Part shown: one piece after another, positions 4,769-19,594 of the stretch
Layout of the letters: the number at the start of each line of letters is the position of its first letter
Position numbering within the stretch: position 1 is the first letter of the stretch
NCBI GenBank assembly: GCA_028710915.1
Contig: JAQTTF010000001.1
Coordinates: 1-51,631 of the forward strand
Direction: 5' to 3'
DNA: 51,631 bases
Source: Minisyncoccota bacterium
Lineage (GTDB): Bacteria > Patescibacteriota > Minisyncoccia > Phycocordibacterales > JAQTLZ01
The notes under the pieces: model-generated
Told to the model about the DNA's origin: nothing
The model's database searches: none
What the model saw: the letters and a program-made list of their open reading frames with translations, nothing else
Position numbers and translations under genes: made by a program

Positions 4769-5845
4769 ATGAAAAAGATATTCCTCTTTACTATAATTTT
4801 GAGTCTCTTCGGTTCTGTTTCTGTTGCACGAGCGATTAGTACTACGACCGACCAAATTATTGCTACCACGACACCGGCAGTTTTAGCGACTCCGATGCCA
4901 ATTCATGGAGGAACAAGTTATGACACTGCCACCCCTTTAAGCTTCGGTTCTTATACTCTCGATCACAATCAGAAAAATGGGAATTACGATTATTTCACTT
5001 TGCCGGCAACTCCTGGGAATACTTTTACCATCACTCTCATTACGTCTGATAAAGGAGTTGGCTATGATGCCCCCTCAAATTCCTTTGTTCCAAGCAACCA
5101 GATAAACGCGGGACTTCGAATTATGGACAAAGACCATACGGATATTAACGATATTAGCATTGTGACAGCGCTCCAAAAAGACTCCATTGTCTACACGCCA
5201 AATTCAACAAGCACCCTCTATCTACTCGTGGGACCTCTGCAGACTGAATACTCGAATGTGTATTATTCGATGAACAAAGATACGATATTTAAAATTGAGA
5301 GCGGTGCACCGACTCCAGTGCCAGCTACCCCTACGCCCGATCTTGGAGCAATTCCGACTCCAAATCCCGATACAACAGGGACAAATCTTTTTAGCGGAAC
5401 AATGCTCTATGTAATTATCGGAATCGGAGTGCTTATCCTTCTTCTCCTCATTATTCTCATCGCAAAAATGTCGAAAAGAAACAAGCCTCCGCAAATTCCT
5501 CCATCGATGATGCCTCCAACAATGCGACCTCCGACATATACACCTCCATCATCTATGCCGCCAGGAACCGCACCGATGTCTATACCGACTCCTCCAATGC
5601 AGAGGCCACCAATGTACACTCCACCGGCAACTATGGCGCCGCCAGTGCAAGTTATGCCGACAGTTCCAATCCAGCCTCCAAGGCCAGCTTATGTCCCTCC
5701 AACAGTTACACCGCCAGTAATGACTACCCCACCCGCTCCAGTAACTCCGACATCGATGCCAACAACTCCTCCTCCAACTCCTCTACAACAAACTCCTCCG
5801 GCTCCACCAGCACCTACTCGAACAATGCCGCCAAGTGGATTGTAG
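4769..5845 (+). CDS. Bitopic surface protein: signal peptide, about 190-aa ectodomain, TM helix, about 125-aa Pro-rich tail
   Basis: Signal peptide is MKKIFLFTIILSLFGSVSVARA. The TM helix is LYVIIGIGVLILLLLIILIA, followed by KMSKRNK. The tail is rich in PPxY-like units (PPTYTPP, PPMYTPP, PAYVPP). Confidence 0.6.
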   Translation: MKKIFLFTIILSLFGSVSVARAISTTTDQIIATTTPAVLATPMPIHGGTSYDTATPLSFGSYTLDHNQKNGNYDYFTLPATPGNTFTITLITSDKGVGYDAPSNSFVPSNQINAGLRIMDKDHTDINDISIVTALQKDSIVYTPNSTSTLYLLVGPLQTEYSNVYYSMNKDTIFKIESGAPTPVPATPTPDLGAIPTPNPDTTGTNLFSGTMLYVIIGIGVLILLLLIILIAKMSKRNKPPQIPPSMMPPTMRPPTYTPPSSMPPGTAPMSIPTPPMQRPPMYTPPATMAPPVQVMPTVPIQPPRPAYVPPTVTPPVMTTPPAPVTPTSMPTTPPPTPLQQTPPAPPAPTRTMPPSGL

Positions 5846-5928
5846 AAACGAAAAACTTCCGCTTTCGCGGAAGTTTTTTGATATTGTTTTTTAGAGAATT
5901 TTCTGTTACCTTTGTAGAGTAATTATAT

Positions 5929-6011
5929 GCGCCGGTCGTATAGCGGCTATTACAGGAGACTGTAAATCTCCCGCCCATTGGGCATCGTTGGTTCGAGTCC
6001 AACCCGGCGCA
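5929..6011 (+). tRNA. tRNA-Tyr (GTA), long variable arm, no encoded CCA
   Basis: Acceptor GCGCCGG/CCGGCGC. Anticodon arm GGAGA-CTGTAAA-TCTCC. T arm GTTGG-TTCGAGT-CCAAC. Discriminator A, followed by CAA. Confidence 0.9.
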
Positions 6012-6058
6012 CAAAGTAAAGAAAGTCTGCACTACTGCAGATTTTCTTACGTTGTGCG
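6007..6058 (+). other. Long imperfect hairpin that includes the last nucleotides of tRNA-Tyr
   Basis: CGCACAAAGTAAAGAAAGTCTGCA-ctac-TGCAGATTTTCTTACGTTGTGCG. The left arm starts inside the acceptor 3' strand. Confidence 0.7.
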
Positions 6059-6101
6059 AGCCGCAGTCATATTTTTTCAGTAGAAAAAATAGACGAGGCA
6101 G

Positions 6102-6146
6102 GGTCGTGAAAATTATTTTGTGACGACAAAATAATTATTCCTGACC
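6102..6146. repeat. GGTC...GACC AT-rich hairpin repeat (copy A)
   Basis: GGTCGTGAAAATTATTTTGT-gacg-ACAAAATAATTATTCCTGACC. A shorter related hairpin lies at 6067-6094 (GTCATATTTTTTC-agta-GAAAAAATAGAC). Confidence 0.65.
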
Positions 6147-6156
6147 ACAAATAAAA

Positions 6157-6200
6157 AACCAATTAGGACACTGGTCGTGTAACGACCGAGATTCCAACCC
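6157..6200 (+). ncRNA. tRNA-linked conserved RNA core motif, copy A (most diverged)
   Basis: AACCAATTAGGACACTG-GGTCG-tgtaa-CGACC-GAGATTCCAACCC. It ends in TCCAACCC, identical to tRNA-Tyr 5998-6005. Confidence 0.5.
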
Positions 6201-6229
6201 ACACAAATTTTTTCTTTTATATAAACAAA

Positions 6230-6260
6230 GAACCGCCGAGAGAAGCGCGGTCGGCGGTTC
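6230..6260 (-). terminator. Rho-independent terminator of the 6284-6982 gene
   Basis: GAACCGCCGA...TCGGCGGTTC stem, followed on the minus strand by TTTGTTT. Confidence 0.65.
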
Positions 6261-6283
6261 TTCGGCGGTAAATCTACATCTTG

Positions 6284-6982
6284 CTATTTCTTTTGGTTCT
6301 CCTTTTCTGGCGGTTTAGAGTTCTTCTCGCGCTCTATTTGTTCTAACGCCCGAGAAAGCGCTCGGAAAAAGGCTTCTTCCTCCTCATGTCCAGCGTTCCG
6401 CTCCCATTGTTCTTCGGCGGCTTTATGGGGGTTTTCAGTCGTAGTCGCCCCTTTGTCTGCTGTTGGGTCATAACCCAAGACCTCGACGACCCTCTTATGC
6501 TGTTCATCGTCCCGTTTGAGATCCTCTTTGAGTGCCTCGTCAGCACGCTCCATAGCCTCCTTGGCCTTGCGGAGCGTCTCGACTGTCTTCTCATCATATG
6601 TCTGAAGCCCCTTTTCAAGCTCCGCTATAAATTGGGGGCTGGGCTCCATCCCCATTTCTTTCATGCCCTTTTTGTACGCTGCAACAACTTCAAGGTCATC
6701 CTTCGCCTCGGTTATCTTCCCACATGCCGTGACAAATTTTGTACACAGCTTTTCTGTCTCCGCCGCGGATTTTTCCAGACTATCCACGCGCTTTTGCAAC
6801 TTCTCGATGGTCGCCTTCTGCTCCGCAATCAGGGCATCATCAACGGCGATTTTCTGCCGCTGGTGTTCAATGAGTTGCTCTTGAGTCACGGGGACAATCC
6901 CCGCGCCTTGCGGCAAATCATTCGCCAGTGCGATCGCAGAGAACAGCGCCAACACAACGAGAGAAAGATGAGTGAATTTCAC
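6284..6982 (-). CDS. Secreted coiled-coil protein, function unknown (GC-richer than its neighbours)
   Basis: GTG start is preceded by GGAGGG at a 6-nt spacing. Signal peptide is MKFTHLSLVVLALFSAIALA, and the rest is a charged heptad-like sequence. The opposite-strand ORF 6386-7231 is treated as a shadow. Confidence 0.65.
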   Translation of the reverse strand: MKFTHLSLVVLALFSAIALANDLPQGAGIVPVTQEQLIEHQRQKIAVDDALIAEQKATIEKLQKRVDSLEKSAAETEKLCTKFVTACGKITEAKDDLEVVAAYKKGMKEMGMEPSPQFIAELEKGLQTYDEKTVETLRKAKEAMERADEALKEDLKRDDEQHKRVVEVLGYDPTADKGATTTENPHKAAEEQWERNAGHEEEEAFFRALSRALEQIEREKNSKPPEKENQKK

Positions 6983-7142
6983 AAAGAACCCTCCAAAATT
7001 GCTCGAGGACCATTCCTGAGCTATATCATAATGATGTATATATCATATTTTGTCAAGTTTCTGTTTTTACCCCGTTTCCCAGTACAGCGCAAAAAACAAC
7101 AAAAAAATTCCGTGAAAGCAGAATTTTTTTGTTTCGCATTTA

Positions 7143-9833
7143 TTATTTCACCCCCTGACCTTTCCCTACCCGCACATCAGAGACGACACTTTTTTTATCT
7201 CTTCGCCCAACTTTTTTCACTTCAAAAATAAATTCTTTCTCTTTCATACCGACAGAAATAATCCCCCCTCTCATAAGTCCTTTTGAAATCATCAGATTTG
7301 CAACAGGTGTCATAAGCTTGTCTTGAATAAGCCTTTTCAAAGGTCGCGCACCATATTGAGGATTGTAGCCTTCTTTTGCCAAGTAGGTGAGCACCACATC
7401 TTCAACCTCGAGAGAAATTTCTTTTGACAGAAGTCGATCTTTCACTACACCAATCTGAATATCTACAATTTCTTTAATCGCTTCTTCGTTCAAGATATCG
7501 AAGACGATCACATCATCAAGACGATTCAAAAATTCCGGTCGAAAATGATCCTTGAGAGCATTCTGTACTTTTGATTTTATTTCTTGATAATCGCTCTTTG
7601 GATTTCCCGCGTTGAAACCGATCTTCTGCATCTTATCGATATAGCTTGCGCCAATATTTGAGGTCAAGACAATGATCGTATTTTTAAAATTGACCACTCT
7701 TCCCTTTGCATCGGTTAGTCTTCCGTTATCAAGAACTTGGAGAAGAATATTGAATACTTCTGGATGTGCTTTTTCAATTTCGTCAAAGAGAATAATCGAA
7801 TACGGTCGATGTCGAACAAGTTCTGTGATGCCTCCGCCTTCGTCGTAGCCCACATAGCCCGGAGGCGAACCGATAATTTTTGAAACCGAATGCTTCTCCA
7901 TATATTCAGACATATCCACACGGATGAGCGCCTTTTCATCGTCAAACATAAATTTCGCAAGCGCTTTGGTAAGCTCTGTCTTTCCCACTCCGGTAGGACC
8001 AAGGAAAATGAACGAGCCGATAGGACGATTTGGATCTGCAACTCCCACGCGAGAACGCTTTACAGCATCGGAAATTTTTCGTACCGCTTCATCCTGACCC
8101 TTGATTCTTGACTTAAGTTCTTCTTCCATTCGAGCGAGTTTCCCTGCTTCTTCCTCAAGCATTCGGGTAACAGGAATCCCCGTCCATTTTGAGACAATGG
8201 AAGCAATATCATTTTCAACAATTTCTTCTTTGAGAATTCGGCGAGAACTCTGGAGCTTCTTGAGTCTCTTTATTTTCGTTTCAAGTTCTTTTTCAAATTC
8301 CGGAATTTTTCCATAGCGAATTTCTGCAGCTCTAGAAAGATCAGAATGGGCTTCGGCGCTTTCTCCCTCCATACGAAGAGATTCAAGTTCTTTCTTAATA
8401 GTTTTTATTTCAGAAATCGTCTCTTTTTCATTTTTCCATTTGAGTTCGATTTCAGAAGTCTTTTCTTTCAGATCAGCAATTTCTTTCTGAATTTTAGAAA
8501 CGCGGGCCTTTGCCACTTTAGAAGTTTCTGCTTCCTTTTTAAGAGCCTCTTTTTCAATTTCAAGACGCATCACTTTTCGATGGGTCTCTTCGAGTGCCGG
8601 GGGCATATCCTCAAGAGAAATTTTGAGTGAAGATGCGGCTTCATCGATAAGATCAACTGCTTTATCAGGCAAGAATCTATCGCTTATATAACGACTCGAA
8701 AGATTTACAGCAGCAACAATTGCATCATCAGTAATTCGCACCCCGTGGAAAAGCTCATATTTTTCTTTGAGGCCTCGAAGAATGGCGATAGCATCATCGA
8801 TCGAAGGCTCGCTTACGTGTACCGGCTGAAAACGTCTTGTGAGCGCGGGATCTTTCTCGATATGACGCTGATACTCCTTAAGCGTTGTCGCTCCGATTGC
8901 GCGAAGCTCTCCCCGAGCCAAAGCAGGCTTGAGCATATTTGAAGCATCCATAGAACCTTCTGCCGCACCAGCGCCGACAATCGTATGAATTTCATCGATG
9001 AAAAGAATAATTCTTCCTTCCGAACGTTCTACTTCCTTAATGATATTCTTGAGACGCTCTTCAAATTCTCCTCGGTATTTGGTACCCGCAATGAGAGAGC
9101 CGAGATCAAGTGACACAAGCTCGCGATCTTTAAGAGATTCTGGAACATCGCCTAGGGCCATCCTAATAGCGAGTCCTTCAGCAATAGCTGTCTTTCCGAC
9201 TCCGGCTTCGCCGATAAGCATCGGATTATTTTTGGTTCGGCGGGAAAGAATCTGGATAATGCGGGAAATCTCGGTGTCTCGGCCAATAACTGGATCCAAT
9301 TTATTTTCTCTGGCAAGCTTGGTCAAACTTCTGGTGTATTTCGAAAGTGATTTAAATTTCTTTGGCTGATTTACATCGGTAATTTTTGCGGTGCGCAATT
9401 CTTCGAGCACGCGAAGTACTCCCTCTTTTTCGATTCGAAAACGAGAAAGAATTTCCCGGGCGCTTCCCGGCACATCAAGGATAGCGATAAAGAGATGTTC
9501 TGTTGAAACGAATTCGTCTTTCAGTCCGGCAGCAATTTTCGAAGATTTCTCGATTGCTTCAGCAAGCTCTGGAGTAAGATAAATCTGATACGAAGGAGCA
9601 ACAACTGCTCCAGATTCCGGGCCTTCAATCGACTCGATGAGCGAATCTGTAAGAAGAAGGGTGTCAATTTCCAGCTTATCGAGAATAGAGGTAACCATAC
9701 TCTCTTCTTGGAGAAGGAGGGCTGTGAGAAGATGGAGCGGATTTACATGATTTTGTCCGCGTTCAATCGCAAGCTCATGAGCCCTGCGGATCGCCTCCTT
9801 TGCTTTTGTGGTGAAATGGTTGAATGGGGGCAT
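7143..9833 (-). CDS. clpB: ATP-dependent chaperone ClpB
   Basis: 896 aa. Has a Clp N domain, two AAA+ modules (GEAGVGKT and GPTGVGKT), a long coiled-coil M domain, and the sensor motif GARPLKR. Confidence 0.95.
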
Positions 9834-9964
9834 TTGGGTAGTTTATTAACTTATAGAAAAATACTGAATACTACATACTTTATGCCGCATACTTCATACT
9901 TATCTTACGTATTATACAGTCAAAAAGGCGCAAATCAAATTTGCCCTTATTTTGTAGGAAAAAG

Positions 9965-10780
9965 CTAGTTGGATGAAGCAGGAATCTGATCTTTAATAAG
10001 ATTTACCGGAGTATAAGTGTTGCGAGAAGTCGTCCCATCGCCGACGAGATGAATACCGATGATTTCTCCTGAAAGATTCAAGAGATAGTATCCTGAAGCC
10101 CCGTCATCTGGATTCAAATTTGTTTTAATAAGAGAAGGAATCTTTGGTACTGTTTTTGCTTTTTCTGCATCAGGATTATCTATCATAGTAATTCCAGAGA
10201 TCACTCCGACGCCGACGACATTTCCGGTATCATTTGCTCCGAGAGAGATCACTGTTTGCCCAAGGCGAATAGTGTTTGAATCAGACAAGATCGCGGGATT
10301 AAAAACATATTTATCTTTTGAGCTATCTCCCGCAGTTTTGAAGAGAGACACTGCTTTCCCTGTAGTCTGCATAGCAAGAATAGGATATGACTTTCCATCA
10401 GAAAACACGGCGCTGAATTTGCCATTTGGGTTAAAAGCAATATTGTCCGAAAGAATCAAGCCATCTTTTGAAACAACGAGTCCAAGTTGTGAAAATGAAG
10501 GAACATCTGCGTCTTTGATATGCACAAGACTTTTGGAATCCTGATTTACAGCGGAAACAATCAAATCTTCCTCGGTTACAGGAACTTCTTTTGTAACGAT
10601 AGTAGGCTGGCCTGGAACAACTTTTTCAACTGTCGTCTGGACAACTCTGTTGATAGTCTGGGTAACGCCCGGAGGAGCCTGATCCAAAAGCGAAACCGTA
10701 ACGATACCAGTCGCAATTGAAGTAATAAAACTCACTAGAAGAGTGAGAAGGATAATTTGTGATTTGGTGAGTTCTTCCAT
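9965..10780 (-). CDS. Membrane-anchored trypsin/HtrA-like domain protein, probably catalytically degenerate
   Basis: N-terminal TM helix. The C-terminal GASGYYLLNLSGEIIGIHL resembles the HtrA motif GNSGGPLLN..G.VIGIN. The position of the HtrA catalytic His reads LILSDNIAF. Confidence 0.5.
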   Translation of the reverse strand: MEELTKSQIILLTLLVSFITSIATGIVTVSLLDQAPPGVTQTINRVVQTTVEKVVPGQPTIVTKEVPVTEEDLIVSAVNQDSKSLVHIKDADVPSFSQLGLVVSKDGLILSDNIAFNPNGKFSAVFSDGKSYPILAMQTTGKAVSLFKTAGDSSKDKYVFNPAILSDSNTIRLGQTVISLGANDTGNVVGVGVISGITMIDNPDAEKAKTVPKIPSLIKTNLNPDDGASGYYLLNLSGEIIGIHLVGDGTTSRNTYTPVNLIKDQIPASSN

Positions 10781-10812
10781 GTGTCTCTATAGTATCAGGT
10801 TTCGGCAGAATT

Positions 10813-11973
10813 TCAATTCAAGATTTTAGAGAGAATTTTCAAGACATTATCAAGTTCTGTTTTTACTGTTTCCCTGCCAAGCGTAAATCGAAGCGAAGAT
10901 CTTTCACATCCCTTTTTATCTGGTAAAGCGCCGATAACATATGAAAAAGGATTTTCGGAAAGATTGTTGCAGGCACTTGTTGAAGAACAAGCGATTCCCG
11001 CTTCATCAAGCTTGATGACTGCAAATTCAGCGTCGAGTTCTGGGAAACAAATATTTACATTATTCGGAAGGCGGCGGACTTGGTCGCCATTTAGAGTCAC
11101 CTTTGGAAACTTTTTTAAAATTTCGGCAATAAGGAAATCGCGCAAACCGGTTAGGCGCGCAGATTCGCTTGAGCGAATCTGCGCGCACTTCTCGAGTGCC
11201 TTTGCCATTCCCACGATCCCCGGAACATTTTCAGTCCCCGATCTGACTCCCACCTCCTGCCCCCCGCCGAAAAGGATCGGCTCAATTGAAACTTCTTTTT
11301 TCTTGTACAAAACTCCGACTCCTTTTGGTCCGTATATTTTTGAACCATCGAGTGTCATCAGGGAAACGCCGAGCGAATCTACTTTAAGCGGCAAATAATT
11401 TGCCGCTTGCGACGCATCAGTATGAAATGCAATTTTCACGCCGTAATCTTTTTGAAATTGTCGGATCAGTCGAGCAATTTCAGAAATCGGCTGGATTGTT
11501 CCAATTTCATTGTTTGCATACATCACTGACACAAGTATCGTATTTTTTTGAAGTACCTTTGCAATATCTTTCGGATTCACAATTCCATTTTCAGAAACTG
11601 GTACATATGTAATTTCTCCGCCTTCTTTTTCAATTTGCTTGCACACTTCGAGAATCGAAGGATGTTCAATAACACTTGTGATAACATGCGGTTTTGAAAT
11701 TTTCTTTTTCGCAGATCGAAAAACTCCAAGAAGCGCCATATTATTCGCTTCTGTCCCGCCGGAAGTAAAAATAATTTCTTCTGCTCGCACCCCAAATTCT
11801 CCTCCGATAGATTTTCGAGCATCCGCCACAGCTTTCTTTGCCGAAACTCCTCCAGTATAAAGGGAAGAAGGATTCTCAAAATTCTCCGAGAAAAACGGCT
11901 TCATAGCTTCAAAAACCTCTTTGTCGAGAGGAGTTGTGGAGGCATAATCGAGATATATGCGTTTTTTATTCAT
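10813..11973 (-). CDS. Cysteine desulfurase (NifS/IscS class V aminotransferase)
   Basis: Motifs TSGGTEANN and HTDASQA, PLP lysine in SKIYGPKGVGVLY, RSGTENV, and active-site Cys in SSTSACNN. The ATG at 11973 (MNKKRIYLDYAS) is preferred over 11991. Confidence 0.9.
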   Translation of the reverse strand: MNKKRIYLDYASTTPLDKEVFEAMKPFFSENFENPSSLYTGGVSAKKAVADARKSIGGEFGVRAEEIIFTSGGTEANNMALLGVFRSAKKKISKPHVITSVIEHPSILEVCKQIEKEGGEITYVPVSENGIVNPKDIAKVLQKNTILVSVMYANNEIGTIQPISEIARLIRQFQKDYGVKIAFHTDASQAANYLPLKVDSLGVSLMTLDGSKIYGPKGVGVLYKKKEVSIEPILFGGGQEVGVRSGTENVPGIVGMAKALEKCAQIRSSESARLTGLRDFLIAEILKKFPKVTLNGDQVRRLPNNVNICFPELDAEFAVIKLDEAGIACSSTSACNNLSENPFSYVIGALPDKKGCERSSLRFTLGRETVKTELDNVLKILSKILN

Positions 11974-12079
11974 TACAGCACAATATAGCAAACCACTGTC
12001 AATTTTCCCAATTTTCTGTATAATTTCCTGCTATACGTGAACGCTATTGCGATGACGAAAATACGCCCAAATATCTACC

Positions 12080-13582
12080 ATGAAGCCCGAAAAGAACAAC
12101 ACAATAGTTCGCCCGCCTGTTATTGCAATAATGGGTCATATTGATCATGGGAAATCCACTCTCCTCGACTACATTCGAAAATCAAACATCGTAGATAAAG
12201 AAGCCGGTGGAATCACCCAGCACGTCGGTGCATACGAAGTGGTTCACAAGGCAAAAGACGGCAAAGAAAGCAAAATCACTTTTCTCGACACTCCAGGTCA
12301 TGCTGCATTCACTGGCATCCGCTCTCGCGGAGTGCGAGTGGCTGACATTGCTGTGCTTGTTGTATCTGCGGAAGATGGGGTAAAAGCACAGACGATCGAA
12401 GCACTCAAAACAATTCAGGCGGAAGAAATCCCTTACATTATTGCAATAACAAAGATAGACAAGCCAAACGCAAACATAGAGCTCGCAAAGCAGAGCATGG
12501 CAACAAACGAAATCTACGTGGAGGGATACGGCGGTTCTATCCCCTGTGTTCCAATATCTGCAAAAACTGGAGAAGGAGTCCCTGAGCTTCTCGATATGAT
12601 GCTTCTCGTCGCGGAAATGGAAGAATTGAAAACTGACATAACAAAACCAGCAGAAGGAGTTATCCTTGAAAGCAATCTAGATCCAAAGAAAGGAATTTCA
12701 GCTACGCTCATACTCACTGATGGCACGCTCAAAAGCGGCTCATACGTCGTATCGGGGCAAAGCAGTGCTCCGGTTCGCATTATGGAAAATTTCGCCGGAG
12801 TAAAAATTGCCGAAGCATCTGCGCCCAGTCCTGTAAAAATAATCGGCTGGAGCGAGATGCCCCAGATCGGCGAACTTTTCAAAACAGTAGAGAGTAAAAA
12901 AGAAGCGGAGCAAATCGCGCTTGAATTCAAAGAAAAAATGGATTCAATTCCAGAGAAAAAAGAAGAGTTGAACGACAAACTTGAAATCCCCCTTGTCGTA
13001 AAAGCTGATGTATCTGGAAGCTTGGAAGCAATTCAAGGAGAAATCGCAAAAATCCCCCAAGAAAAAGTAAAATTGAAGATTATTCAAAGCGGGATCGGCA
13101 CAATTTCTGAAAGCGATGTGAAGGTGGCGAACGGAAGCGCGGGCTCAATCCTCATCGGCTTCAGTGTAAAGATTGATTCACAGGCAGAGAGCTTGCGAGA
13201 AAGACTCGGAGTACAGATGCAGATGTTCGACATCATTTATAAACTCGTCGAATACCTCGAAGAAACAGTTAAGACAAGAACTCCCAAAGTAATGACCGAA
13301 GAAGCAACCGGCCGAGCGAAAATTATGAAGACATTTAGTCGAAACAAAGATCGCCAGATTGTCGGTGGAAAAGTAGAAACGGGAGAAATCAGAACTGGAA
13401 AGGAAGTAAAAATCTTACGCAGAGATGTCGAAATCGGAAGAGGAAGAATCAAAGAACTCCAACAGCAAAAAGCGAAAGCAACAGAGATCCGCGAAGGATA
13501 CGAATTTGGAGCAGACATAGAAGCAAAAATCGAGATAGCTCCGGGAGACCGGGTAGAATGTTTTGACGTTGTAGAAAAATAA
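12080..13582 (+). CDS. infB: Translation initiation factor IF-2 (short form, G domain at the N-terminus)
   Basis: Motifs GHIDHGKSTL, DTPGHAAF and TKIDK, plus IF-2 C-terminal domains. It is followed by rbfA. Confidence 0.9.
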   Translation: MKPEKNNTIVRPPVIAIMGHIDHGKSTLLDYIRKSNIVDKEAGGITQHVGAYEVVHKAKDGKESKITFLDTPGHAAFTGIRSRGVRVADIAVLVVSAEDGVKAQTIEALKTIQAEEIPYIIAITKIDKPNANIELAKQSMATNEIYVEGYGGSIPCVPISAKTGEGVPELLDMMLLVAEMEELKTDITKPAEGVILESNLDPKKGISATLILTDGTLKSGSYVVSGQSSAPVRIMENFAGVKIAEASAPSPVKIIGWSEMPQIGELFKTVESKKEAEQIALEFKEKMDSIPEKKEELNDKLEIPLVVKADVSGSLEAIQGEIAKIPQEKVKLKIIQSGIGTISESDVKVANGSAGSILIGFSVKIDSQAESLRERLGVQMQMFDIIYKLVEYLEETVKTRTPKVMTEEATGRAKIMKTFSRNKDRQIVGGKVETGEIRTGKEVKILRRDVEIGRGRIKELQQQKAKATEIREGYEFGADIEAKIEIAPGDRVECFDVVEK

Positions 13583-13585
13583 ATC

Positions 13586-13912
13586 ATGGCTGAATTTCGA
13601 GACGAAAAAATCATAGCGATCATTAAAGAAGCCGGCGCACAATTTCTGGCGCAGGAATCAACTCGTGCTTCCCTTCTCACTGTTACTAAAGTAGATCTCT
13701 CAACAGATGGGAAACGAGCAATAATTTACTTCACTGCTTTCCCTACCGACAAAGAGGAAACGGCGCTTCTCTTTGCAAAGCGAAAGCGAAAAGATTTTCA
13801 AGAATTTATGCGCGAGAAAACAAGCCTCGGACGAATGCCCTTATTTGATTTTGCAATTGATGAAGGAGAGAAGAATCGCCAGAAGATCGACTCCTTATCG
13901 CAAAAAATCTAA
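13586..13912 (+). CDS. rbfA: Ribosome-binding factor A
   Basis: 108 aa, located immediately after infB. Has the RbfA-like pattern (LLTVTKVDLSTDGKRAIIYF). Confidence 0.75.
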   Translation: MAEFRDEKIIAIIKEAGAQFLAQESTRASLLTVTKVDLSTDGKRAIIYFTAFPTDKEETALLFAKRKRKDFQEFMREKTSLGRMPLFDFAIDEGEKNRQKIDSLSQKI

Positions 13913-13944
13913 AAAATGTTACACTAAACGAGTCGTATTTATAC

Positions 13945-14019
13945 GGCCACGTAGCCAAGTGGTAAGGCAGAGATCTGCAAAATCTCTATGCGGCGGTTCA
14001 ATTCCGCCCGTGGCCTCCA
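13945..14019 (+). tRNA. tRNA-Cys (GCA), CCA encoded
   Basis: Acceptor GGCCACG/CGTGGCC. Anticodon arm GAGAT-CTGCAAA-ATCTC. T arm GGCGG-TTCAATT-CCGCC. Ends in TCCA. Confidence 0.9.
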
Positions 14020-14023
14020 TAAT

Positions 14024-14113
14024 GCCCGGGTGGCGAAATTGGTAGACGCAGAGGACTTAAAATCCTCGGCCCTTTAAAAAGGCATGTGGGTTCGATTCCC
14101 ACCCCGGGCACCA
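14024..14113 (+). tRNA. tRNA-Leu (TAA), CCA encoded
   Basis: Acceptor GCCCGGG/CCCGGGC. Anticodon arm GAGGA-CTTAAAA-TCCTC. Long variable arm. T arm GTGGG-TTCGATT-CCCAC. Lies 4 nt after tRNA-Cys. Confidence 0.9.
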
Positions 14114-14149
14114 ATGAAAAGAAGTACCTTGGGTACTTCTTTTCATTGG
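14111..14149 (+). other. Long hairpin starting at the CCA of tRNA-Leu(TAA)
   Basis: CCAATGAAAAGAAGTACC-ttg-GGTACTTCTTTTCATTGG. Confidence 0.75.
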
Positions 14150-14151
14150 CT

Positions 14152-14164
14152 GGTGGGAATCGAA
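14152..14164 (+). other. 13-nt block perfectly antisense to the T arm of the preceding tRNA-Leu(TAA)
   Basis: GGTGGGAATCGAA is the exact reverse complement of TTCGATTCCCACC at 14091-14103. Confidence 0.8.
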
Positions 14165-14191
14165 AGACGGAAGCGCTTGGCGCTGAGTCGG

Positions 14192-14228
14192 GGTCGCGGA
14201 ATTTTTCAGTAGAAAAATATCCGTGACC
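14192..14228. repeat. GGTC...GACC AT-rich hairpin repeat (copy B1)
   Basis: GGTCGCGGAATTTTTC-agta-GAAAAATATCCGTGACC. Confidence 0.7.
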
Positions 14229-14254
14229 GATTCCCATTTCGAAGACTAAAGGGG

Positions 14255-14299
14255 AAACCAATCGGGGTACTGACCCTGTAAGGGTCGATATCTTTCCCC
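14255..14299 (+). ncRNA. tRNA-linked conserved RNA core motif, copy B
   Basis: AAACCAATCGGGGTACTG-GACCC-tgtaa-GGGTC-GATATCTTTCCCC. AATCGG (14260-14265) can pair with CCGATT (14227-14232). Confidence 0.6.
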
Positions 14300-14360
14300 C
14301 TATGAGTTTGTCAGAACACTTTTTTTCTGTTATTGTTTTTGAGTTTCCAGGATTTGTCAT

Positions 14361-14405
14361 GGTCAGGAATAATTTCAATTCCGTCGAATTGAAATTTCCC
14401 CGACC
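14361..14405. repeat. GGTC...GACC AT-rich hairpin repeat (copy B2)
   Basis: GGTCAGGAATAATTTCAATTC-cgtc-GAATTGAAATTTCCCCGACC. Its left arm matches the reverse complement of the right arm of copy A. Confidence 0.7.
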
Positions 14406-14496
14406 CGGCCTCACCTATTTTTCTTGTTAGAAAAATATGGTTCCGGCTTGCACAAGTCCACAAAAACTTAAAGCAGTTTAAGTTTTTGAGCATTAT

Positions 14497-14569
14497 GCAC
14501 CCATAGCTCAGCTGGTAGAGCAGATCCCTCTTAAGGATAAGGTCGTAGGTTCGATCCCTACTGGGTGCA
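14497..14569 (+). tRNA. tRNA-Lys (CTT), no encoded CCA
   Basis: Acceptor GCACCCA/TGGGTGC. Anticodon loop CTCTTAA. T arm GTAGG-TTCGATC-CCTAC. Discriminator A, followed by CAA. Confidence 0.85.
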
Positions 14570-14614
14570 CAACTTTGAAAAATCTTCACTGCTGAAGATT
14601 TTTCAAAGTTGTGC
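14567..14614 (+). other. Long hairpin that includes the last 3 nt of tRNA-Lys
   Basis: GCACAACTTTGAAAAATCTTCA-ctgc-TGAAGATTTTTCAAAGTTGTGC, a perfect 22-bp stem. Confidence 0.8.
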
Positions 14615-14658
14615 AAGACGGAGGTATGTTTTGCGAGTACGCAAAACAACCGAGTCGG

Positions 14659-14703
14659 GGTCGCGAAAATTTTTACTCGACGGAGTAAAAATTATTTGTG
14701 ACC
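14659..14703. repeat. GGTC...GACC AT-rich hairpin repeat (copy C)
   Basis: GGTCGCGAAAATTTTTACTC-gacg-GAGTAAAAATTATTTGTGACC. Confidence 0.7.
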
Positions 14704-14710
14704 ACAACAA

Positions 14711-14751
14711 AAAATCCAATCGGGATACTGTTCTCGTAGAGAAAGATTCCC
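14711..14751 (+). ncRNA. tRNA-linked conserved RNA core motif, copy C
   Basis: AAAATCCAATCGGGATACTG-TTCTC-gta-GAGAA-AGATTCCC. Confidence 0.6.
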
Positions 14752-14785
14752 AGGTGGACGCACCGAGTAAAACAACATCATAAAT

Positions 14786-14867
14786 GCCGGGGTGGCGAAA
14801 TTGGCAGACGCACTTGCCTTAGGAGCAAGCGGAGTAATCCATGGAGGTTCAAGTCCTCTCCCCGGCA
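14786..14867 (+). tRNA. tRNA-Leu (TAG), no encoded CCA
   Basis: Acceptor GCCGGGG/CCCCGGC. Anticodon arm CTTGC-CTTAGGA-GCAAG. Long variable arm. T arm GGAGG-TTCAAGT-CCTCT. Confidence 0.9.
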
Positions 14868-14912
14868 CAAATTAAAAAACTAGCACTTAAGTGCTAGTTT
14901 TTTAATTTGTGC
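14865..14912 (+). other. Long hairpin that includes the last 3 nt of tRNA-Leu(TAG)
   Basis: GCACAAATTAAAAAACTAGCAC-ttaa-GTGCTAGTTTTTTAATTTGTGC, a perfect 22-bp stem. A second hairpin lies at 14917-14938 (GTAAGTGCC-aaaa-GGCACTTAC). Confidence 0.8.
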
Positions 14913-14940
14913 GGGAGTAAGTGCCAAAAGGCACTTACGT

Positions 14941-15093
14941 GAGAGGACTTGAAGCCCGATTGAGCATTTTTTCTAGCTCTACCAAGCGAAGAAAAAATCC
15001 AATCGGGGTACTGCTCCTGTAAGGAGAAAGATTCTCCTTCCGATCGACAAGAAGATCGAAAAGTACCGGGCGTAGCCGACAAGTCCTCTCCCG
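14941..15093 (+). ncRNA. tRNA-linked structured element, copy D (closed domain containing the core motif at 14994-15038)
   Basis: GAGAGGACTTGAA (14941-14953) is the exact antisense of tRNA T arm 14848-14860. GAGAGGACTTG also pairs with CAAGTCCTCTC at 15080-15090. Inner helices are CCCGATTG/CAATCGGG (14955-62/15000-07) and ATTTTTTCT/AGAAAAAAT (14966-74/14990-98). The core reads AAAATCCAATCGGGGTACTG-CTCC-tgtaa-GGAG-AAAGATTCTCC. Confidence 0.6.
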
Positions 15094-15169
15094 CTTTCTA
15101 CTGCCCAGTCAACAACTCCTTTTCCTATTCTATCCTTAAACCAAGCCACCAAATCGAGTATTCTCTAGG

Positions 15170-15198
15170 TTGACAAATGCTTGTTTATATGATAGTAT
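15170..15198 (+). promoter_or_regulatory. Sigma-70-type promoter for the 15292 gene
   Basis: TTGACA (15170-15175), a 17-nt spacer, then TAGTAT (15193-15198). Confidence 0.5.
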
Positions 15199-15291
15199 AC
15201 AGGTAGAGGAGTCGTGTGATTCCTGCTTGTACATTCAAATCGTCATTACCGGGTTTGAAAAACCCAGAAACCAAACGGAGGCAAGAAGATC

Positions 15292-16116
15292 ATGGAGACT
15301 TTGCTGGATGTCTTGGGTATCATCGCTCTTGTGCTGTTCATCCTGACAGTATTGGGTGTGATAGACAAAGAGAGCTGGAAACAGTTCGGAGGGTGGGCAT
15401 GGGCAAAGACCCCCCCGATTGCGCGATGGGCGCTGTTCGCGGTCATAATCATCGGCCTTTACGGGCTCTGCGCGTTCAATGGCACTTACGAGAGGTTGTC
15501 ATGGGATGCCAGAACTCGAATCTTCTTCTTCTTACTATCGATACCAATTGCTTTCATAATTGGTAGCGCTGGTAGCGGAGCAGGAGCGCCGGCAGGACAC
15601 GGCGGGCATGGAGGAGGACACGGCGGCGGAGGGAGCAACAAAAATTGGGCACTCATCCTCCTTGCACTGGGGGTCGTCATTGTTGCGTGGATGGGGGTGG
15701 TTAACGCCCCTGGAATTGTGCAGGCAGTGAACCCTACTACGGTAAGCCCCAAAAAAGCGGCCGGTCAGAAAGCAAGCGCTGGGAACACAACACAAGTTAT
15801 AGTTTCCCAGAAGCCGCCGGAAGGTCCAGAAAATATGGCTCCAGTCCCAGTCGAGCCGGGAACAATGAGTGAAGTGTTTCCTGTCTCTACGAAAGACATC
15901 ATGTATTGGATTTATCTCCACAAGCGCTCCGACAATGGCCACGTATCCCTCATTCTATACAATGGGAAGTGGACCAAAAGCGGCAAGTATGTTGCTGATC
16001 TGAGCCACAAGGAAGTCTGCGACTCGGGTAGCGCTGAATTTCCAAGACTACCTTTCGTACAATTAGATAATACGAAGGGGAGAGGAAGTGTGGACCTGGG
16101 GTGGAACAAAAACTGA
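15292..16116 (+). CDS. Multi-TM membrane protein with a Gly/His-rich loop, function unknown (GC-rich island)
   Basis: GGAGG lies 10 nt upstream of the ATG. About 4 TM helices, the loop GSGAGAPAGHGGHGGGHGGGGSN, and a soluble C-terminal domain of about 130 aa. Confidence 0.6.
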   Translation: METLLDVLGIIALVLFILTVLGVIDKESWKQFGGWAWAKTPPIARWALFAVIIIGLYGLCAFNGTYERLSWDARTRIFFFLLSIPIAFIIGSAGSGAGAPAGHGGHGGGHGGGGSNKNWALILLALGVVIVAWMGVVNAPGIVQAVNPTTVSPKKAAGQKASAGNTTQVIVSQKPPEGPENMAPVPVEPGTMSEVFPVSTKDIMYWIYLHKRSDNGHVSLILYNGKWTKSGKYVADLSHKEVCDSGSAEFPRLPFVQLDNTKGRGSVDLGWNKN

Positions 16117-16542: not shown

Positions 16543-16875
16543 CTATCGAGGGAGAAGATTAGGAACGTTATTTGCCTGATTCAACTGGAGAGAGTCTCGA
16601 AGGAGGTTTACCAAGCCCCAGACAGACACCATGACGAAAATAGCGATAATACCGTAAATCATTGTATTCCTTCCAGCTTGTCGCTTTTCCTCATCCCCTC
16701 CTGCCAAGATATAGGTAAGAACTCCGTATAGAAAGAGTACAACCGCTGCAGAGATAAAGAGCGGTACGAGTCTGGTAAGGATGTTCTGAGCCCAGGTAAT
16801 GAGATTATCAACACCAGCCGCAAATGCGAGCATTGGCAGTGCCCAAGCTGACGCAACAATAAGAGTTTTTTTCAT
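16543..16875 (-). CDS. Two-TM pilin-like protein, paralog 2
   Basis: 110 aa. Signal peptide MKKTLIVASAWALPMLAFA. C-terminal module LFLYGVLTYILAGGDEEKRQAGRNTMIYGIIAIFVMVSVWGLVNLL. Confidence 0.65.
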   Translation of the reverse strand: MKKTLIVASAWALPMLAFAAGVDNLITWAQNILTRLVPLFISAAVVLFLYGVLTYILAGGDEEKRQAGRNTMIYGIIAIFVMVSVWGLVNLLRDSLQLNQANNVPNLLPR

Positions 16876-16999
16876 TTCTTAAAAAAATAACTTAATAATA
16901 AAGACCTTTTGATAAATAATACGTGCCTTAATGGTAACAAACCGCGGGAAATGAGCAAGAAAGATGTGTGGATATTAAATCTTCTCCAGACTAACATTA

Positions 17000-17521
17000 C
17001 TAAGGGGTAAGTTGCGGCAATATAGGACTCTTGCCCACAACACTTAGGCTAATAATGCCGACAAGCGCCCATAGTGTAGTAATAACTGCAAGGCCGACAA
17101 TACCATAGGTCATAAACCTGACTCCTTCTTTGCGTTTCTCTTCATCGCCCCCTGAATAAATATAGCGAAGCACCCCATACAGGAAGCCAACGACAGCGAG
17201 ACCAACAAGGAGTGGAATGAGTAGGCCCAAATAGCTGGTCAAACAAGCAACCAAAGATTTAAAATCGTTTATTGCGCCGCATGAACCACCGGCAGAAGTG
17301 TGTACGCTATATGCAGAATCGCTACAACTCTGAATTGCCGGCAAGTCTAGCCCAGCATTGAGAGTGCCCGGTGGACATATATAAGCATGCGCGACGAAAG
17401 GAGTAAAAAAGAAAGACGAAAGAACAAAACAAAACATAACCAAGGAAATGACACCTCGGGAATGGAGGATAAAATACTTTGTAACACGATTAAATCTTTG
17501 AGCTGCCGAACGTGTATGCAT
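17000..17521 (-). CDS. Pilin-like paralog 3 with a short Cys-containing ectodomain
   Basis: C-terminal module FLYGVLRYIYSGGDEEKRKEGVRFMTYGIVGLAVITTLWALVGII. Five Cys lie upstream of it. The true start may be the internal ATG at 17434 (MFCFVLSS...). Confidence 0.6.
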   Translation of the reverse strand: MHTRSAAQRFNRVTKYFILHSRGVISLVMFCFVLSSFFFTPFVAHAYICPPGTLNAGLDLPAIQSCSDSAYSVHTSAGGSCGAINDFKSLVACLTSYLGLLIPLLVGLAVVGFLYGVLRYIYSGGDEEKRKEGVRFMTYGIVGLAVITTLWALVGIISLSVVGKSPILPQLTP

Positions 17522-17538
17522 ATGAATAAAAATTATTT

Positions 17539-18441
17539 TTATAATTGATTAATAGTGTTTTGAATAATTGCAGAGAGCGCTGTTGCCCCCAAAAGCACGG
17601 CGGCACCGACAACCGTCCAAAGAAATGCTCTTTTCGCTGTTTCCAATTCCTCGCTGTTGCCCTGCGCTTTTACAAAAAGGAATCCAGAATAAATAATTGC
17701 AAGCACAATAATAATCGCTCCAATTTGTTCTGCGATCTTCAAAATCTTTGCAAAAAGCTGATAGAGATCACAGGTATTCCCAAGAGGATTTTTAAGTCCA
17801 CCAGAACTATCACACCCTTTTCCACTGTTTGGTCCTTGCTGAAGGAGACCTGCACTATTTGGTCCTTGCTGAAGCAAGCCTGGATCTGTTGTGTCATTCG
17901 CTGCAGGTGGTACCACATTCGTCGGAGCTGGAGTCGGAGCGGCCGCATTATTTATTGAAGAAAGAGGAGCGTAAGATCCTGAACTGCCGTTTCCGACCAA
18001 AATACCGCTGAGATCAAAATTGAAGAGAAATCCGGTAGTTGATGAATTGGGGTAATACGGCTTTAGCTTATTATTTATTGTAACAATATCCACAGAAGTA
18101 CACTGTCGGCAGGAGCCTCCGGCCACCCCAGAATTATTGATTGACTGAACGCACGCAGCATTTGTAGGAAAAGCATTCACTGCTTTTTTGTCTTTTCCTA
18201 TTGCACACCAGACAGTACAGGTACCGCAGATATTCCATGACGGGTCTCTCCCCTGCGTACAAGCAGGTCCTGAAGCAAAAACATGCACCACATCACTCGG
18301 ATCTTTCGAACACCATGTGGCCGCAAAAGCAGAGGTAGCTCCTAATGTAAAAAACAAAGCAAAAAGAAAAATTGCAAACAAAAAATGAGACTTGCGACCA
18401 AGCGTAGTTTTAATGTTCTTCTCTTTTTTTACAGTATTCAT
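17539..18441 (-). CDS. Pilin-like paralog 4 with a Cys-rich ectodomain of about 200 aa
   Basis: C-terminal module IIYSGFLFVKAQGNSEELETAKRAFLWTVVGAAVLLGATAL. The N-terminal region has 11 Cys. The ATG at 18441 (MNTVKKEK...) avoids overlap with the upstream gene. The ORF is open to 18498. Confidence 0.6.
   Translation of the reverse strand: MNTVKKEKNIKTTLGRKSHFLFAIFLFALFFTLGATSAFAATWCSKDPSDVVHVFASGPACTQGRDPSWNICGTCTVWCAIGKDKKAVNAFPTNAACVQSINNSGVAGGSCRQCTSVDIVTINNKLKPYYPNSSTTGFLFNFDLSGILVGNGSSGSYAPLSSINNAAAPTPAPTNVVPPAANDTTDPGLLQQGPNSAGLLQQGPNSGKGCDSSGGLKNPLGNTCDLYQLFAKILKIAEQIGAIIIVLAIIYSGFLFVKAQGNSEELETAKRAFLWTVVGAAVLLGATALSAIIQNTINQL
17828..17887 (-). repeat. Two tandem 30-nt units encoding GLLQQGPNS twice
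   Basis: TTTGGTCCTTGCTGAAG is exact at 17828 and at 17858. Confidence 0.8.
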
Positions 18442-18457
18442 TTTTTCTTTTTTAAGA

Positions 18458-19594
18458 TTATCCAAAAATACCTTTGAAAAACTCCGGATCTGCCACAAGA
18501 CCTTTAATGATCGTATTCACCAGAAGCCACGCGCAAAGCATAATAATAATTCCAATGAGAGCGCTCCAAAAGATTTGATGAGCCTCTTCTATTTTCCCAG
18601 GATTCCCGCCTGCGGTCAAATAGAGAAAACCGGCAAAAAAGAAAGCAACGGCGGCAATCGAGACAGCGACTTTAAGAAGAAAGCCGATGATATTGCCGAT
18701 AAGATTAAGAAATTGCTGGAAACCACAATTGCTATAGGCGGTTTGATTTGTAGCATCAATAGTAACAGTGCCGTCACAGGAAACCAGTCCGCTCGGGTTT
18801 GTGCTGGAAGTCGGATTTCCATTATTGCCATTTCCTCCGCCCTTAGGCTGAGTTGGGGATTGAGGGTTAGTGGGTGTTGGCGATGGATTTGCTGAGGAGT
18901 TACAAGCAGTATCGGAAAACCTGCAAGCTCCTCCGGGAACATTATTGGTTTGAATATAAGACTGACATACCTGCATAAATGAACTCTTTTCATCAACAGT
19001 AGAATATTTCGATTCTTTAAAAGGTTTCCCATTCGAATCCATACAGACATATCCAGAAACAGGAGCTGGAGTGGGTGTTGGAGTTGGAGCAACACAATCA
19101 GTATCAGAGAGTGTGCAAGTACCTCCGGATATATTATTAGTCTGAATATATGTTTGACACTGTTGCATGCCAGTATTTTTCTCCTGCTCACTTGCATAAT
19201 GCAATTTCTTCAGAAGAGTTGTACTGGAGTTCATACAAATCCAACCCGACACAGGTACAGGAGTTGGAGTGGGAGTTGGTGTGGGTGTGGGAGGAATAGT
19301 AGCAGAACAGCTGCATTTCCATTGTGCTACTCCCCTTTCTTGAGCAACCCCCGGAACATCGTTACTACAAGCTTCTCCCTGATCGAAATCTTGCCCAACC
19401 GTATGAAATATATATGTCTTCGCAACAACAGTGGAACCATCACAAGTAAGACTCCAGTAGCCTTCTTCTGGCGTGTTCGGATCCGTAGTAGCTTTCACTC
19501 CCGTCGTCGGTAAAAAATAGAAAGATACTCCCAAGGCTATTGCAATAGCAATAATATAGAAAGGAAACCTTTTTGAAGATAAAAAATTGAACAT
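18458..19594 (-). CDS. Pilin-like paralog 5 with a large Cys-rich, TP-linker modular ectodomain
   Basis: 378 aa. C-terminal module FFFAGFLYLTAGGNPGKIEEAHQIFWSALIGIIIMLCAWLLVN. Two ectodomain modules of about 63 aa are joined by (TP)n linkers. Confidence 0.7.
   Translation of the reverse strand: MFNFLSSKRFPFYIIAIAIALGVSFYFLPTTGVKATTDPNTPEEGYWSLTCDGSTVVAKTYIFHTVGQDFDQGEACSNDVPGVAQERGVAQWKCSCSATIPPTPTPTPTPTPVPVSGWICMNSSTTLLKKLHYASEQEKNTGMQQCQTYIQTNNISGGTCTLSDTDCVAPTPTPTPAPVSGYVCMDSNGKPFKESKYSTVDEKSSFMQVCQSYIQTNNVPGGACRFSDTACNSSANPSPTPTNPQSPTQPKGGGNGNNGNPTSSTNPSGLVSCDGTVTIDATNQTAYSNCGFQQFLNLIGNIIGFLLKVAVSIAAVAFFFAGFLYLTAGGNPGKIEEAHQIFWSALIGIIIMLCAWLLVNTIIKGLVADPEFFKGIFG
18875..19255 (-). repeat. 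Tandem duplication of a Cys module of about 63 aa inside paralog 5
   Basis: PVSGWICMNSS..QQCQTYIQTNNISGGTCTLSDTDC aligns with PVSGYVCMDSN..MQVCQSYIQTNNVPGGACRFSDTAC. Confidence 0.8.

Follow-up and report, generated by a model that had tools for sequence, protein, structure and literature searches.

Short non-coding elements at tRNA 3' ends of Patescibacteria that carry antisense and sense copies of the neighbouring tRNA tail

The elements of the window

The stretch considered here (below, the window) comprises 51,631 nucleotides, positions 1 to 51,631 of contig JAQTTF010000001.1 of a Minisyncoccota bacterium. ARAGORN and Rfam, applied to the whole window, call five tRNA genes, all on the plus strand; four of them are followed by a copy (A to D) of the non-coding element that is the subject of this report (Table 1). 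A preliminary description, made from the letters alone, had listed these copies as a conserved RNA motif of about 45 nt just downstream of tRNA genes. All four are present on the tRNA strand: the 15-mer CCAATCGGGGTACTG occurs exactly at 14258 (B) and 14999 (D), with one mismatch at 14716 (C), and as CCAATTAGGACACTG, with four mismatches, at 6159 (A). At up to three mismatches the window contains three matches against 0.65 expected, and none of 100 shuffles reaches three. Each copy does lie 3' of a tRNA gene, but at a spacing of 131-147 nt rather than next to it. The arms of the small hairpin, said to be complementary though different in every copy, are indeed so; a better parse is a 5-bp stem with a GUA triloop (ACCCU-GUA-AGGGU, CUCCU-GUA-AGGAG, GUCGU-GUA-ACGAC and UUCUC-GUA-GAGAA).

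The size of the motif and the equality of the copies had to be revised. The conserved unit is about 95-135 nt long, and the motif as described is the 3' half of this larger unit, a three-way junction. The canonical form (type 1) is seen, for example, in window copy D (14909-15041, the only complete type-1 unit of the window) and in L065, L081, L107 and L182, where L-numbers denote homologous genome loci compared with the window. Behind the tRNA gene lies a variable spacer, in many cases a palindromic hairpin of A-tract, stem and T-tract whose beginning is within the tRNA 3' end; then come the antisense of the acceptor 3' strand, an 8-bp hairpin (hp1) and the antisense of the T-stem 3' strand and T-loop (the anti-T segment). 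The core consists of G, CCCGAUUG-AGC, the hairpin hp2 (A/U-rich; its internal loop is a tandem G.A), C-CAAUCGGG-GUACUG and the 5-bp hairpin with the GUA triloop; hp2 caps the helix P2 formed by CCCGAUUG and CAAUCGGG. The unit ends with a direct copy of the tRNA that starts at T54, runs along the 3' strands of the T-stem and acceptor stem and stops at the discriminator. This copy and the antisense segments, both derived from tRNA positions 54-73, make up the helix that closes the core. The "T-loop-like GAUUC tail" noticed earlier is thus literally a copy of the T-loop and 3' end of the neighbouring tRNA.

Table 1. Positions of the tRNA genes and element parts in the window
Feature	Position	Strand	Description	Basis
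tRNA-Tyr(GUA)	5929-6012	+	copy A 3' of gene	ARAGORN; Rfam tRNA, 53.6 bits
A, palindromic terminator-like hairpin	6005-6063	+	begins inside tRNA 3' end	sequence; same layout in homologues
A, antisense acceptor 3' strand	6052-6063	+	ttgtgcgagccg; ends the palindromic hairpin	sequence
A, type-2 core	6059-6146	+	AGCCGCAG - hairpin - GACGAGGCAGGGTCGTG - hairpin - CCTGACC	pattern match at 6095; sequence
A, type-1 remnant	6159-6205	+	diverged 15-mer 6159-6173; GUA-triloop hairpin 6174-6186	covariance model, 11 bits, E 0.9
A, decayed tRNA-Tyr T-loop/T-stem 3'/3'-end copy	within 6159-6205	+	CGAGATTCCAACCCACACA against tRNA TTCGAGTCCAACCCGGCGCACA	
tRNA-Cys	13945-14019	+	precedes tRNA-Leu(UAA); without element	ARAGORN; Rfam
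tRNA-Leu(UAA)	14024-14113	+	copy B 3' of gene	ARAGORN; Rfam
B, perfect palindrome	14110-14149 (feature 14110-14164)	+		sequence
B, antisense T-loop and T-stem 3' strand	14151-14164	+	tggtgggaatcgaa; reverse complement equals tRNA TTCGATTCCCACC	
B, type-2 core	14165-14236	+	AGACGGAAG - hairpin - CUGAGUCGGGGUCGCGG - hairpin - UCCGUGACC	sequence; pattern match
B, T-loop copy closing the type-2 core	14229-14236	+	GATTCCCA	sequence
B, type-1 3' half	14251-14299	+	GGGGAAA; 15-mer 14258-14272; GUA-triloop hairpin 14273-14285; CGATATC-TTTCCCC	covariance model, 34 bits
tRNA-Lys(CUU)	14497-14570	+	copy C 3' of gene	ARAGORN; Rfam
C, perfect palindrome	14566-14615	+	includes tRNA 3' end	sequence
C, type-2 core	up to 14703 (feature 14566-14703)	+	AGACGGAGG - hairpin - ACCGAGUCGGGGUCGCG - hairpin - UUUGUGACC	sequence; pattern match
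C, type-1 remnant	14716-14764	+	15-mer (1 mismatch) 14716-14730; GUA-triloop hairpin 14731-14743	covariance model, 24.6 bits
C, decayed T-loop/3'-end copy	within 14716-14764	+	AGATTCCCAGGTGGACGCACC	sequence
tRNA-Leu(UAG)	14786-14868	+	copy D 3' of gene	ARAGORN; Rfam
D, palindromic A-tract/stem/T-tract hairpin	14864-14917	+	includes tRNA 3' end	sequence
D, antisense acceptor strand	14909-14917	+	gtgcgggag	RNA folding pairs the hairpin region with the tRNA 3' end
D, hp1	14918-14937	+		alignments
D, antisense T-stem 3' strand and T-loop	14941-14953	+	GAGAGGACTTGAA	alignments
D, P2 5' strand	14955-14962	+	CCCGATTG	alignments
D, hp2 (A/U-rich hairpin)	14966-14998	+		alignments
D, 15-mer	14999-15013	+	P2 3' strand and GUACUG	alignments
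D, GUA-triloop hairpin	15014-15026	+		alignments
D, decayed T-loop/3'-end copy	15027-15041	+		alignments
Second tRNA-Leu(UAG) 3' remnant	15088-15102	+	CAAGTCCTCTCCCGC; also kept in L101	13 nt identical to tRNA T-loop/T-stem

Judged by their sequences, copies A, B and C are chimeric and partly eroded, with type-2 cores fused to truncated type-1 halves, because a second core type directly follows the palindrome or antisense segment and only the 3' half of type 1 is kept; in B, too, the 5' half of the type-1 core is missing. The upstream pairing partner proposed earlier for B and D is a true helix (P2) in D only. In B, the "CCGATT" partner proved to be the T-loop copy that closes the preceding type-2 module. 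A covariance model built from homologues finds D at 14943-15036 with 83.5 bits and E 1.2e-21, B with E 2e-7, C with E 1e-4 and A at the E-value given in Table 1; the same search reveals no further type-1 copy in the window. The remnant behind tRNA-Leu(UAG) is probably the tail of an older, eroded module.

The type-2 core has the consensus RGMCGGARG - hairpin - GAGKCGGGGUCGCG - hairpin - YGUGACC and is found at 14165-14228, 14616-14703 and 6059-6146 of the window and in L036, L105, L144, L149, L154, L162, L171, L180 and L185. It has the same antisense and sense tRNA arms as type 1 and shares the string UCGGGGU with it; its helices covary across loci (GAC/GUC against GCC/GGC, for example). In L036, L149 and L162, type-2 and complete type-1 units follow one another, and every unit has antisense and sense arms of its own. 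Further variants exist (CGCCGGAG...GGUGMCCAG...AGUCGMGGG and AAAGGUUCUCCCAU...GGGAAACCUGUACUG); at least two or three core families use one arm design. After the GUA hairpin of L124, L128, L152 and L105, the conserved string GA(A)AAAUGUACYNNNGGU replaces or follows the T-loop copy and may be the start of another module.

The palindromes of the window are unusually long and near-perfect, have arms of 18-23 bp and start from the last tRNA bases (14110-14149, 14566-14615, 14864-14911 and 6005-6058); from their sequence they look like bidirectional terminators. Between the window and its close relative L101 they differ by symmetric, i.e. compensated, changes. The motif GCCCAGTCAA (reverse complement TTGACTGGGC, -35-like) stands at 15107-15116 of the window and also in L024, L158 and L036; in several genomes it recurs just 3' of elements or 5' of orphan units.

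Occurrence and folded structure

Scanning species-representative genomes for the 15-mer alone yielded mostly chance matches; those sharing the hairpin and tail are all from Patescibacteria and lie 3' of tRNA genes. The scan was replaced by a two-anchor type-1 pattern, CCCGATTGAG-N18-46-CCAATCGGGRTACTG, which matches at least 116 genome loci. Every named locus belongs to Saccharibacteria, Taylorbacteria, Paceibacterota, Parcubacteria, Nomurabacteria, Lloydbacteria or the "Patescibacteria group", and one metagenome-assembled genome (CAYZNH: L040, L095, L120, L124, L128 and two copies in L164) holds at least seven type-1 copies. The pattern has no match in the viral contigs of IMG/VR, and a phage origin was rejected on this ground. 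The motifs belong to a family of non-coding elements of about 100-250 nt, spread throughout Patescibacteria (the candidate phyla radiation, CPR), at the 3' ends of genes for tRNA and transfer-messenger RNA (tmRNA). We found no description of the element in the full text of the literature, exact sequence strings included, within an incomplete coverage of that literature, and we regard the family as previously undescribed.

As the preliminary description had it, the motif has no match in Rfam. The program cmscan with Rfam 15, applied to the whole window at gathering thresholds and to 5800-15400 at E<=10, returns only the five tRNAs; the sub-threshold matches are miRNA-type hairpin models on the palindromes. 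The hepatitis delta virus (HDV)-like, hammerhead, twister, twister-sister, pistol, hatchet, tmRNA, YrlA and T-box families of Rfam 15 do not include it.

The earlier claim of a structured single-stranded nucleic acid under genuine covariation is borne out by three analyses. RNAalifold recovers P2, hp2 and the small hairpin from 40 sequences with many compensatory changes. The full structure, which consists of P1 (the anti-T segment paired with the T-loop copy), P2/hp2 and the small hairpin, was tested on a seed alignment of 29 sequences: 93.6% of the cells pair, and all measures exceed those of 500 shuffles and of slid controls. The covariance model from this seed finds 132 copies in 100 loci, and in their alignment 93.1% of the cells pair, with double changes at all 32 pairs (values reached by 0 of 500 shuffles). 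P2 is invariant in the copies selected by the pattern and covaries in variants such as CCCCGAUG/CAUCGGGG. The conserved helices are all nested. In the fold of the isolated perfect unit of L182 (z = -7.3), an acceptor-like helix, hp1, P1 and the three-way junction are all present.

Internal G.U pairs outnumber A.C pairs 34:15 on the tRNA-sense strand, and therefore it is this strand that folds, either as RNA or as single-stranded DNA (ssDNA). What recurs at the hairpin apices is the GNA triloop, in the GUA hairpin and in GCGAAGC, and the classic RNA tetraloops are rare. The heptamer GCGAAGC, a mini-hairpin with a GAA triloop, occurs 24 times at hairpin apices in 23.5 kb of element sequence (loci L119-L221; for example, L215, L182, L187 and L130), and its reverse complement does not occur there. 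GNA triloops are especially stable in DNA.

These data bear on the proposal that the units are inert scars, either leftovers of att sites and arms of larger integrative elements (similar to cis-mobilisable elements, CIME) or by-products of template switching at tRNA-terminator palindromes. Direct repeats from the T-loop to the tRNA end are a signature of integrase-mediated insertion into tRNA and tmRNA genes, and many copies are decayed and mosaic, as scars would be. However, scars should not show compensatory changes at every helix position over 132 copies, one and the same core across Saccharibacteria, Taylorbacteria, Nomurabacteria and Lloydbacteria, and strand-specific enrichment of motifs; nor do viral contigs match. 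We consider this origin very unlikely.

The arms, the host tRNA and the turnover of elements

The relation to tRNA genes was counted for 125 type-1 copies among the matches listed. A tRNA gene lies on the same strand within 450 nt upstream in 98 of them, with a median of 75 nt from the tRNA end to the core and at least 37 anticodons represented. About eleven of the remaining copies are at contig edges, the copy in L186 follows tmRNA, and several orphan copies are preceded only by a fragment from the T-loop to the 3' end. The GUA loop was considered as an anticodon mimic and dismissed, as it stays GUA behind 37 different anticodons. In L133 (2006-2247) a group I intron (Rfam, 58 bits) splits the tRNA gene that precedes a type-1 element, and L123 probably has the same arrangement.

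In 82 of the 98 copies, at least 11 of the 13 nt upstream of the core agree with the T-loop and T-stem 3' strand of the local tRNA, read as reverse complement. The segment is a complement and not a copy, because non-palindromic T-loops appear complemented (TTCAAAT as ATTTGAA, TTCAAGT as ACTTGAA); its reading as a copy of the T-stem 5' strand followed by a palindromic TTCGAA was rejected for the same reason. In the only two informative G.U cases, it complements the T-stem 3' strand. Of 82 units, 46 have the antisense acceptor segment, against 11 of 82 shuffled controls; its distance upstream from the anti-T segment is always 22-28 nt. In 17 of the 98 copies, all 20 positions of the downstream sense copy agree with the tRNA tail, and most others agree partially; the identity begins at T54, or near position 60 with an indel of 1-2 nt, and ends within a few nucleotides of the tRNA 3' end. 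We also tried the 3' arm of the small hairpin as a third antisense segment derived from the tRNA (to give a substrate clamp, as in a ribozyme, over positions 49-73) and discarded it: identity to positions 51-53 is 1.65 against 1.66 in the control, and the hairpin shares only T54 and T55 with the tRNA.

The antisense acceptor segment and the sense 3' copy together rebuild the acceptor helix of the tRNA, the copy stops at the discriminator, fresh copies match the tRNA tail completely, and tmRNA, a classic tRNA-like RNA, is among the hosts. All this could be expected of a stand-alone stable RNA that mimics tRNA and serves as a decoy, sponge or spare part for tRNA-directed enzymes or toxins; processing by RNase P and RNase Z would leave an RNA with the acceptor and T stems of the neighbouring tRNA. 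We find this reading quite unlikely. The T-loop is sequestered in a duplex, so that the tRNA elbow is not mimicked; the helix often runs on through the discriminator; CCA is not encoded; and the sense copies commonly decay while the core persists. Nor did consensus scans reveal a promoter-like signal between the palindrome and the unit, scans for promoter and terminator consensus being uninformative here.

A test independent of the core finds an antisense or sense copy downstream of 136 of the 202 tRNAs in the ascertained loci. The 66 tRNAs without one matter for a second proposal, a cis-acting RNA co-transcribed with the tRNA as a device of 3' processing, insulation or quality control. It might be a self-cleaving ribozyme like the theta or HDV-like ones, or a pseudo-tRNA minihelix recruiting RNase P, RNase Z or RNase III to the trailer. 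The position close to tRNA and tmRNA genes and on their strand, the strong covariation with the G.U excess on the sense strand, the fold of the isolated L182 unit (seen as an acceptor-like helix, one arm and an extended T-like helix) and the three-way-junction core with an invariant unpaired UAC and a GNA/GNRA-like loop all agree with such a device. It would, however, not be universal, and the unit at tRNA-Cys is absent from the window and present in L101. The units also erode, with half of the core lost in window copies A-C and the sense copies decayed, and the junction with the T-loop copy has variable indels of 1-2 nt. Co-transcribed antisense arms would, according to thermodynamic modelling, unfold the tRNA, and no ribozyme model of Rfam matches even at E<=10. 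Co-transcription and a ribozyme were among the suggestions of the preliminary description; nothing we found shows either, and a terminator-like palindrome usually separates the tRNA from the element. We regard this proposal as rather unlikely.

The comparison with L101 illustrates the turnover. The intergenic flanks of the two are about 97% identical, and the element content differs at three of four tRNAs. Between tRNA-Cys and tRNA-Leu(UAA), L101 (1931-2072) has a unit of a third type, GGCGGAATTGAA-AGGGTTTTCGATG...GGTCGCC-AATTCCCAGCC..., where the window has a spacer of only 4 nt (14020-14023). L101 has no unit after tRNA-Leu(UAA), a full type-1 variant after tRNA-Lys, and the same D unit, whose palindrome (with compensated changes) and sense copy are not those of the window. 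The tRNA-Leu(UAA) genes themselves (window 14024-14113, L101 2072-2160) are identical in their 5' halves and differ from the variable arm onward, and the differences span both strands of the T-stem and the acceptor 3' strand. The element appears to take the 3' half of the tRNA along with it.

Whole units are repeated in tandem in L081, L155, L180 and L181. Near-identical hp2 hairpins make up 14% of comparisons within genomes, between copies at different tRNAs, and 0.9% between genomes, with the arms differing; hp1 is identical in L120 and L124. From this sharing of hp1 and hp2 together with differing arms it follows that cores multiply inside a genome, their arms being rewritten to fit each tRNA. 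The family behaves as a dynamic, amplifying repeat rather than as a fixed accessory of tRNA genes.

A tentative reading, known analogues and the neighbourhood

We presume, with a probability of about 0.45, that these are miniature insertion or integrative elements that encode no protein, are specialised on the 3' ends of tRNAs and act in single-stranded form; they behave more like tiny mobile DNA than like housekeeping RNA. From the anatomy, complementarity, covariation, range, tandems, orphans, mosaicism and presence/absence differences described above, we infer mobility, a single-stranded intermediate and an enzyme. A selfish non-autonomous element is preferred over an essential tRNA accessory because of the repeat from the T-loop to the tRNA end, the choice of tRNA and tmRNA targets and the gene left intact with a terminator-like hairpin, as well as because of amplification, orphans, mosaicism, erosion and rapid turnover.

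Such a unit would bring or regenerate a tRNA 3' end that is functional and has a terminator-like hairpin of its own, and the other copy of the tRNA tail would stay downstream as a direct repeat; genomic islands that target tRNA genes yield the same layout, which is found here on a scale of about 150 nt. The antisense arms would fold the tRNA-sense single strand into a rod, with the tRNA-derived segment double-stranded and the two ends capped by the conserved core and the terminator hairpin. The folded ssDNA or RNA could then be recognised and recombined, either by host enzymes or by a factor whose gene lies elsewhere. The arms have two alternative pairings, with the real tRNA tail across the palindrome or with the downstream copy across the core, as expected if the unit is a circular permutation of a rod-like single-stranded molecule; a rod integrating at the homologous segment would produce exactly the layout seen.

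Several points speak against this reading. Neither a free or circular form nor an insertion caught in the act was seen in these data, and no recombinase, integrase, transposase or reverse transcriptase was found among the 30 window open reading frames (ORFs) scanned or adjoining elements. The differences between the window and L101 could reflect allele replacement by homologous recombination, the T-arm of tRNA-Leu being swapped as well. We know of no enzymatic precedent for rewriting sense and antisense arms of about 20 nt for each new tRNA. That the core is so strongly conserved across deep CPR lineages would suit a host function as well. The pattern by which the loci were ascertained fixes P2, which inflates their apparent sequence conservation.

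It is also tempting to see in the core a catalytic or guide RNA of a new kind, which would find the 3' half of one particular tRNA, or the gene of that tRNA, by about 20 nt of programmable pairing. It would either insert itself there with no dedicated protein, as a self-integrating element guided by RNA or ssDNA, or release a spare 3' segment for ligation to damaged tRNAs. We consider this unlikely. If true, the core would amount to a programmable nucleic-acid machine that is addressed to tRNAs and peculiar to CPR bacteria.

Genomic islands and prophages inserted by a tyrosine integrase into tRNA and tmRNA genes (T-loop sublocation) likewise use the 3' end, keep the gene intact and leave a direct repeat from the T-loop to the end, and such a repeat next to an intact gene is what we observe. 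However, the insert here is about 100-250 bp without integrase or any other gene (the units of 100-250 nt contain no ORF, and no integrase was found among the 30 window ORFs scanned), adds an antisense copy and a conserved folded core, and stands behind dozens of tRNAs per genome. Repetitive extragenic palindromic sequences (REP) and REPINs are likewise short, non-coding, hairpin-rich, intergenic, numerous and alike within a genome; they also have strand-specific hairpin motifs and often double as terminators. RAYT/IS200-type HUH enzymes, which act on ssDNA hairpins, move these and other structured non-autonomous repeats in trans. Dispersed copies, similarity within genomes and hairpins are what REPINs and miniature inverted-repeat transposable elements would show, and they are found here. 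REPINs, however, have no tRNA specificity or target-derived arms, and no RAYT or TnpA is tied to the present elements. The only candidate terminal inverted repeat is the 8-bp inverted repeat of P2, which is subterminal, and no transposase is seen in the window.

In the CTX-phi type of integrative mobile elements exploiting Xer and in integron attC sites, inverted sequences likewise fold a single strand into a duplex of the chromosomal target, and structure is conserved more than sequence. These use dif or attI with XerCD or IntI, whereas the duplex here would differ for each tRNA, and we know of no site-specific recombinase that tolerates this. The theta/HDV-like and hammerhead ribozymes near phage tRNAs are likewise small structured RNAs 3' of tRNA, with a core between arms that pair with a substrate-like strand. 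Our element, in contrast, follows a terminator-like hairpin at a distance of 30-250 nt from the tRNA end and is chromosomal in CPR bacteria, not viral. The hammerhead core CUGANGA/GAAA is absent from the alignments, where the junction strands are G, GUACUG and (C)GA. The nested double pseudoknot of HDV-like and theta ribozymes is likewise absent, given helices that are all nested and a tRNA-adjoining spacer that is variable and often a palindrome. Finally, tRNA-like structures (the tmRNA domain, YrlA, viral tRNA-like structures) also have acceptor and T-stem helices and end at the discriminator; here, the T-loop is paired and interrupted by the core, and in place of a fixed mimic there is a sequence copied from the adjacent tRNA. 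A free T-loop or elbow and an unpaired discriminator-CCA were not found in the elements, as the T-loop copy pairs with its antisense. We believe that the architecture is new in kind because each of these analogues shares one or two features with it and fails a defining one.

If mobile, these would be the smallest known elements that home to tRNA genes, by target-derived arms instead of an encoded enzyme, and would imply an unknown retargeting mechanism of engineering interest. If they are functional RNAs, a large share of the tRNA genes in a major bacterial radiation has an unrecognised structured partner. Either way, they are abundant lineage-specific landmarks, and cultured Saccharibacteria give an experimental handle on them. 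The elements probably break metagenome assemblies of CPR bacteria and confound tRNA-gene annotation.

The elements of the window are surrounded by housekeeping genes (ClpB, a short IF-2, RbfA, alanine racemase, HisRS, BipA and AddA-like helicases) and by type IV pilus and T4SS-pilin genes; the stretch is from the chromosome of a bacterium of the CPR/Patescibacteria type. T4SS_pilin domains occur in four consecutive ORFs (16543-19594 and 21480-27323, minus strand, including the pilus cluster), and the type IV pilus cluster, also on the minus strand, encodes a PilB-like T2SSE protein, a PilC-like T2SSF protein and a prepilin with N_methyl. Genes of both kinds are typical of episymbiotic CPR bacteria and are relevant to ssDNA uptake. 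The IF-2 gene (12080-13582) codes for only 500 amino acids without the long N-terminal region, which fits a reduced CPR genome.

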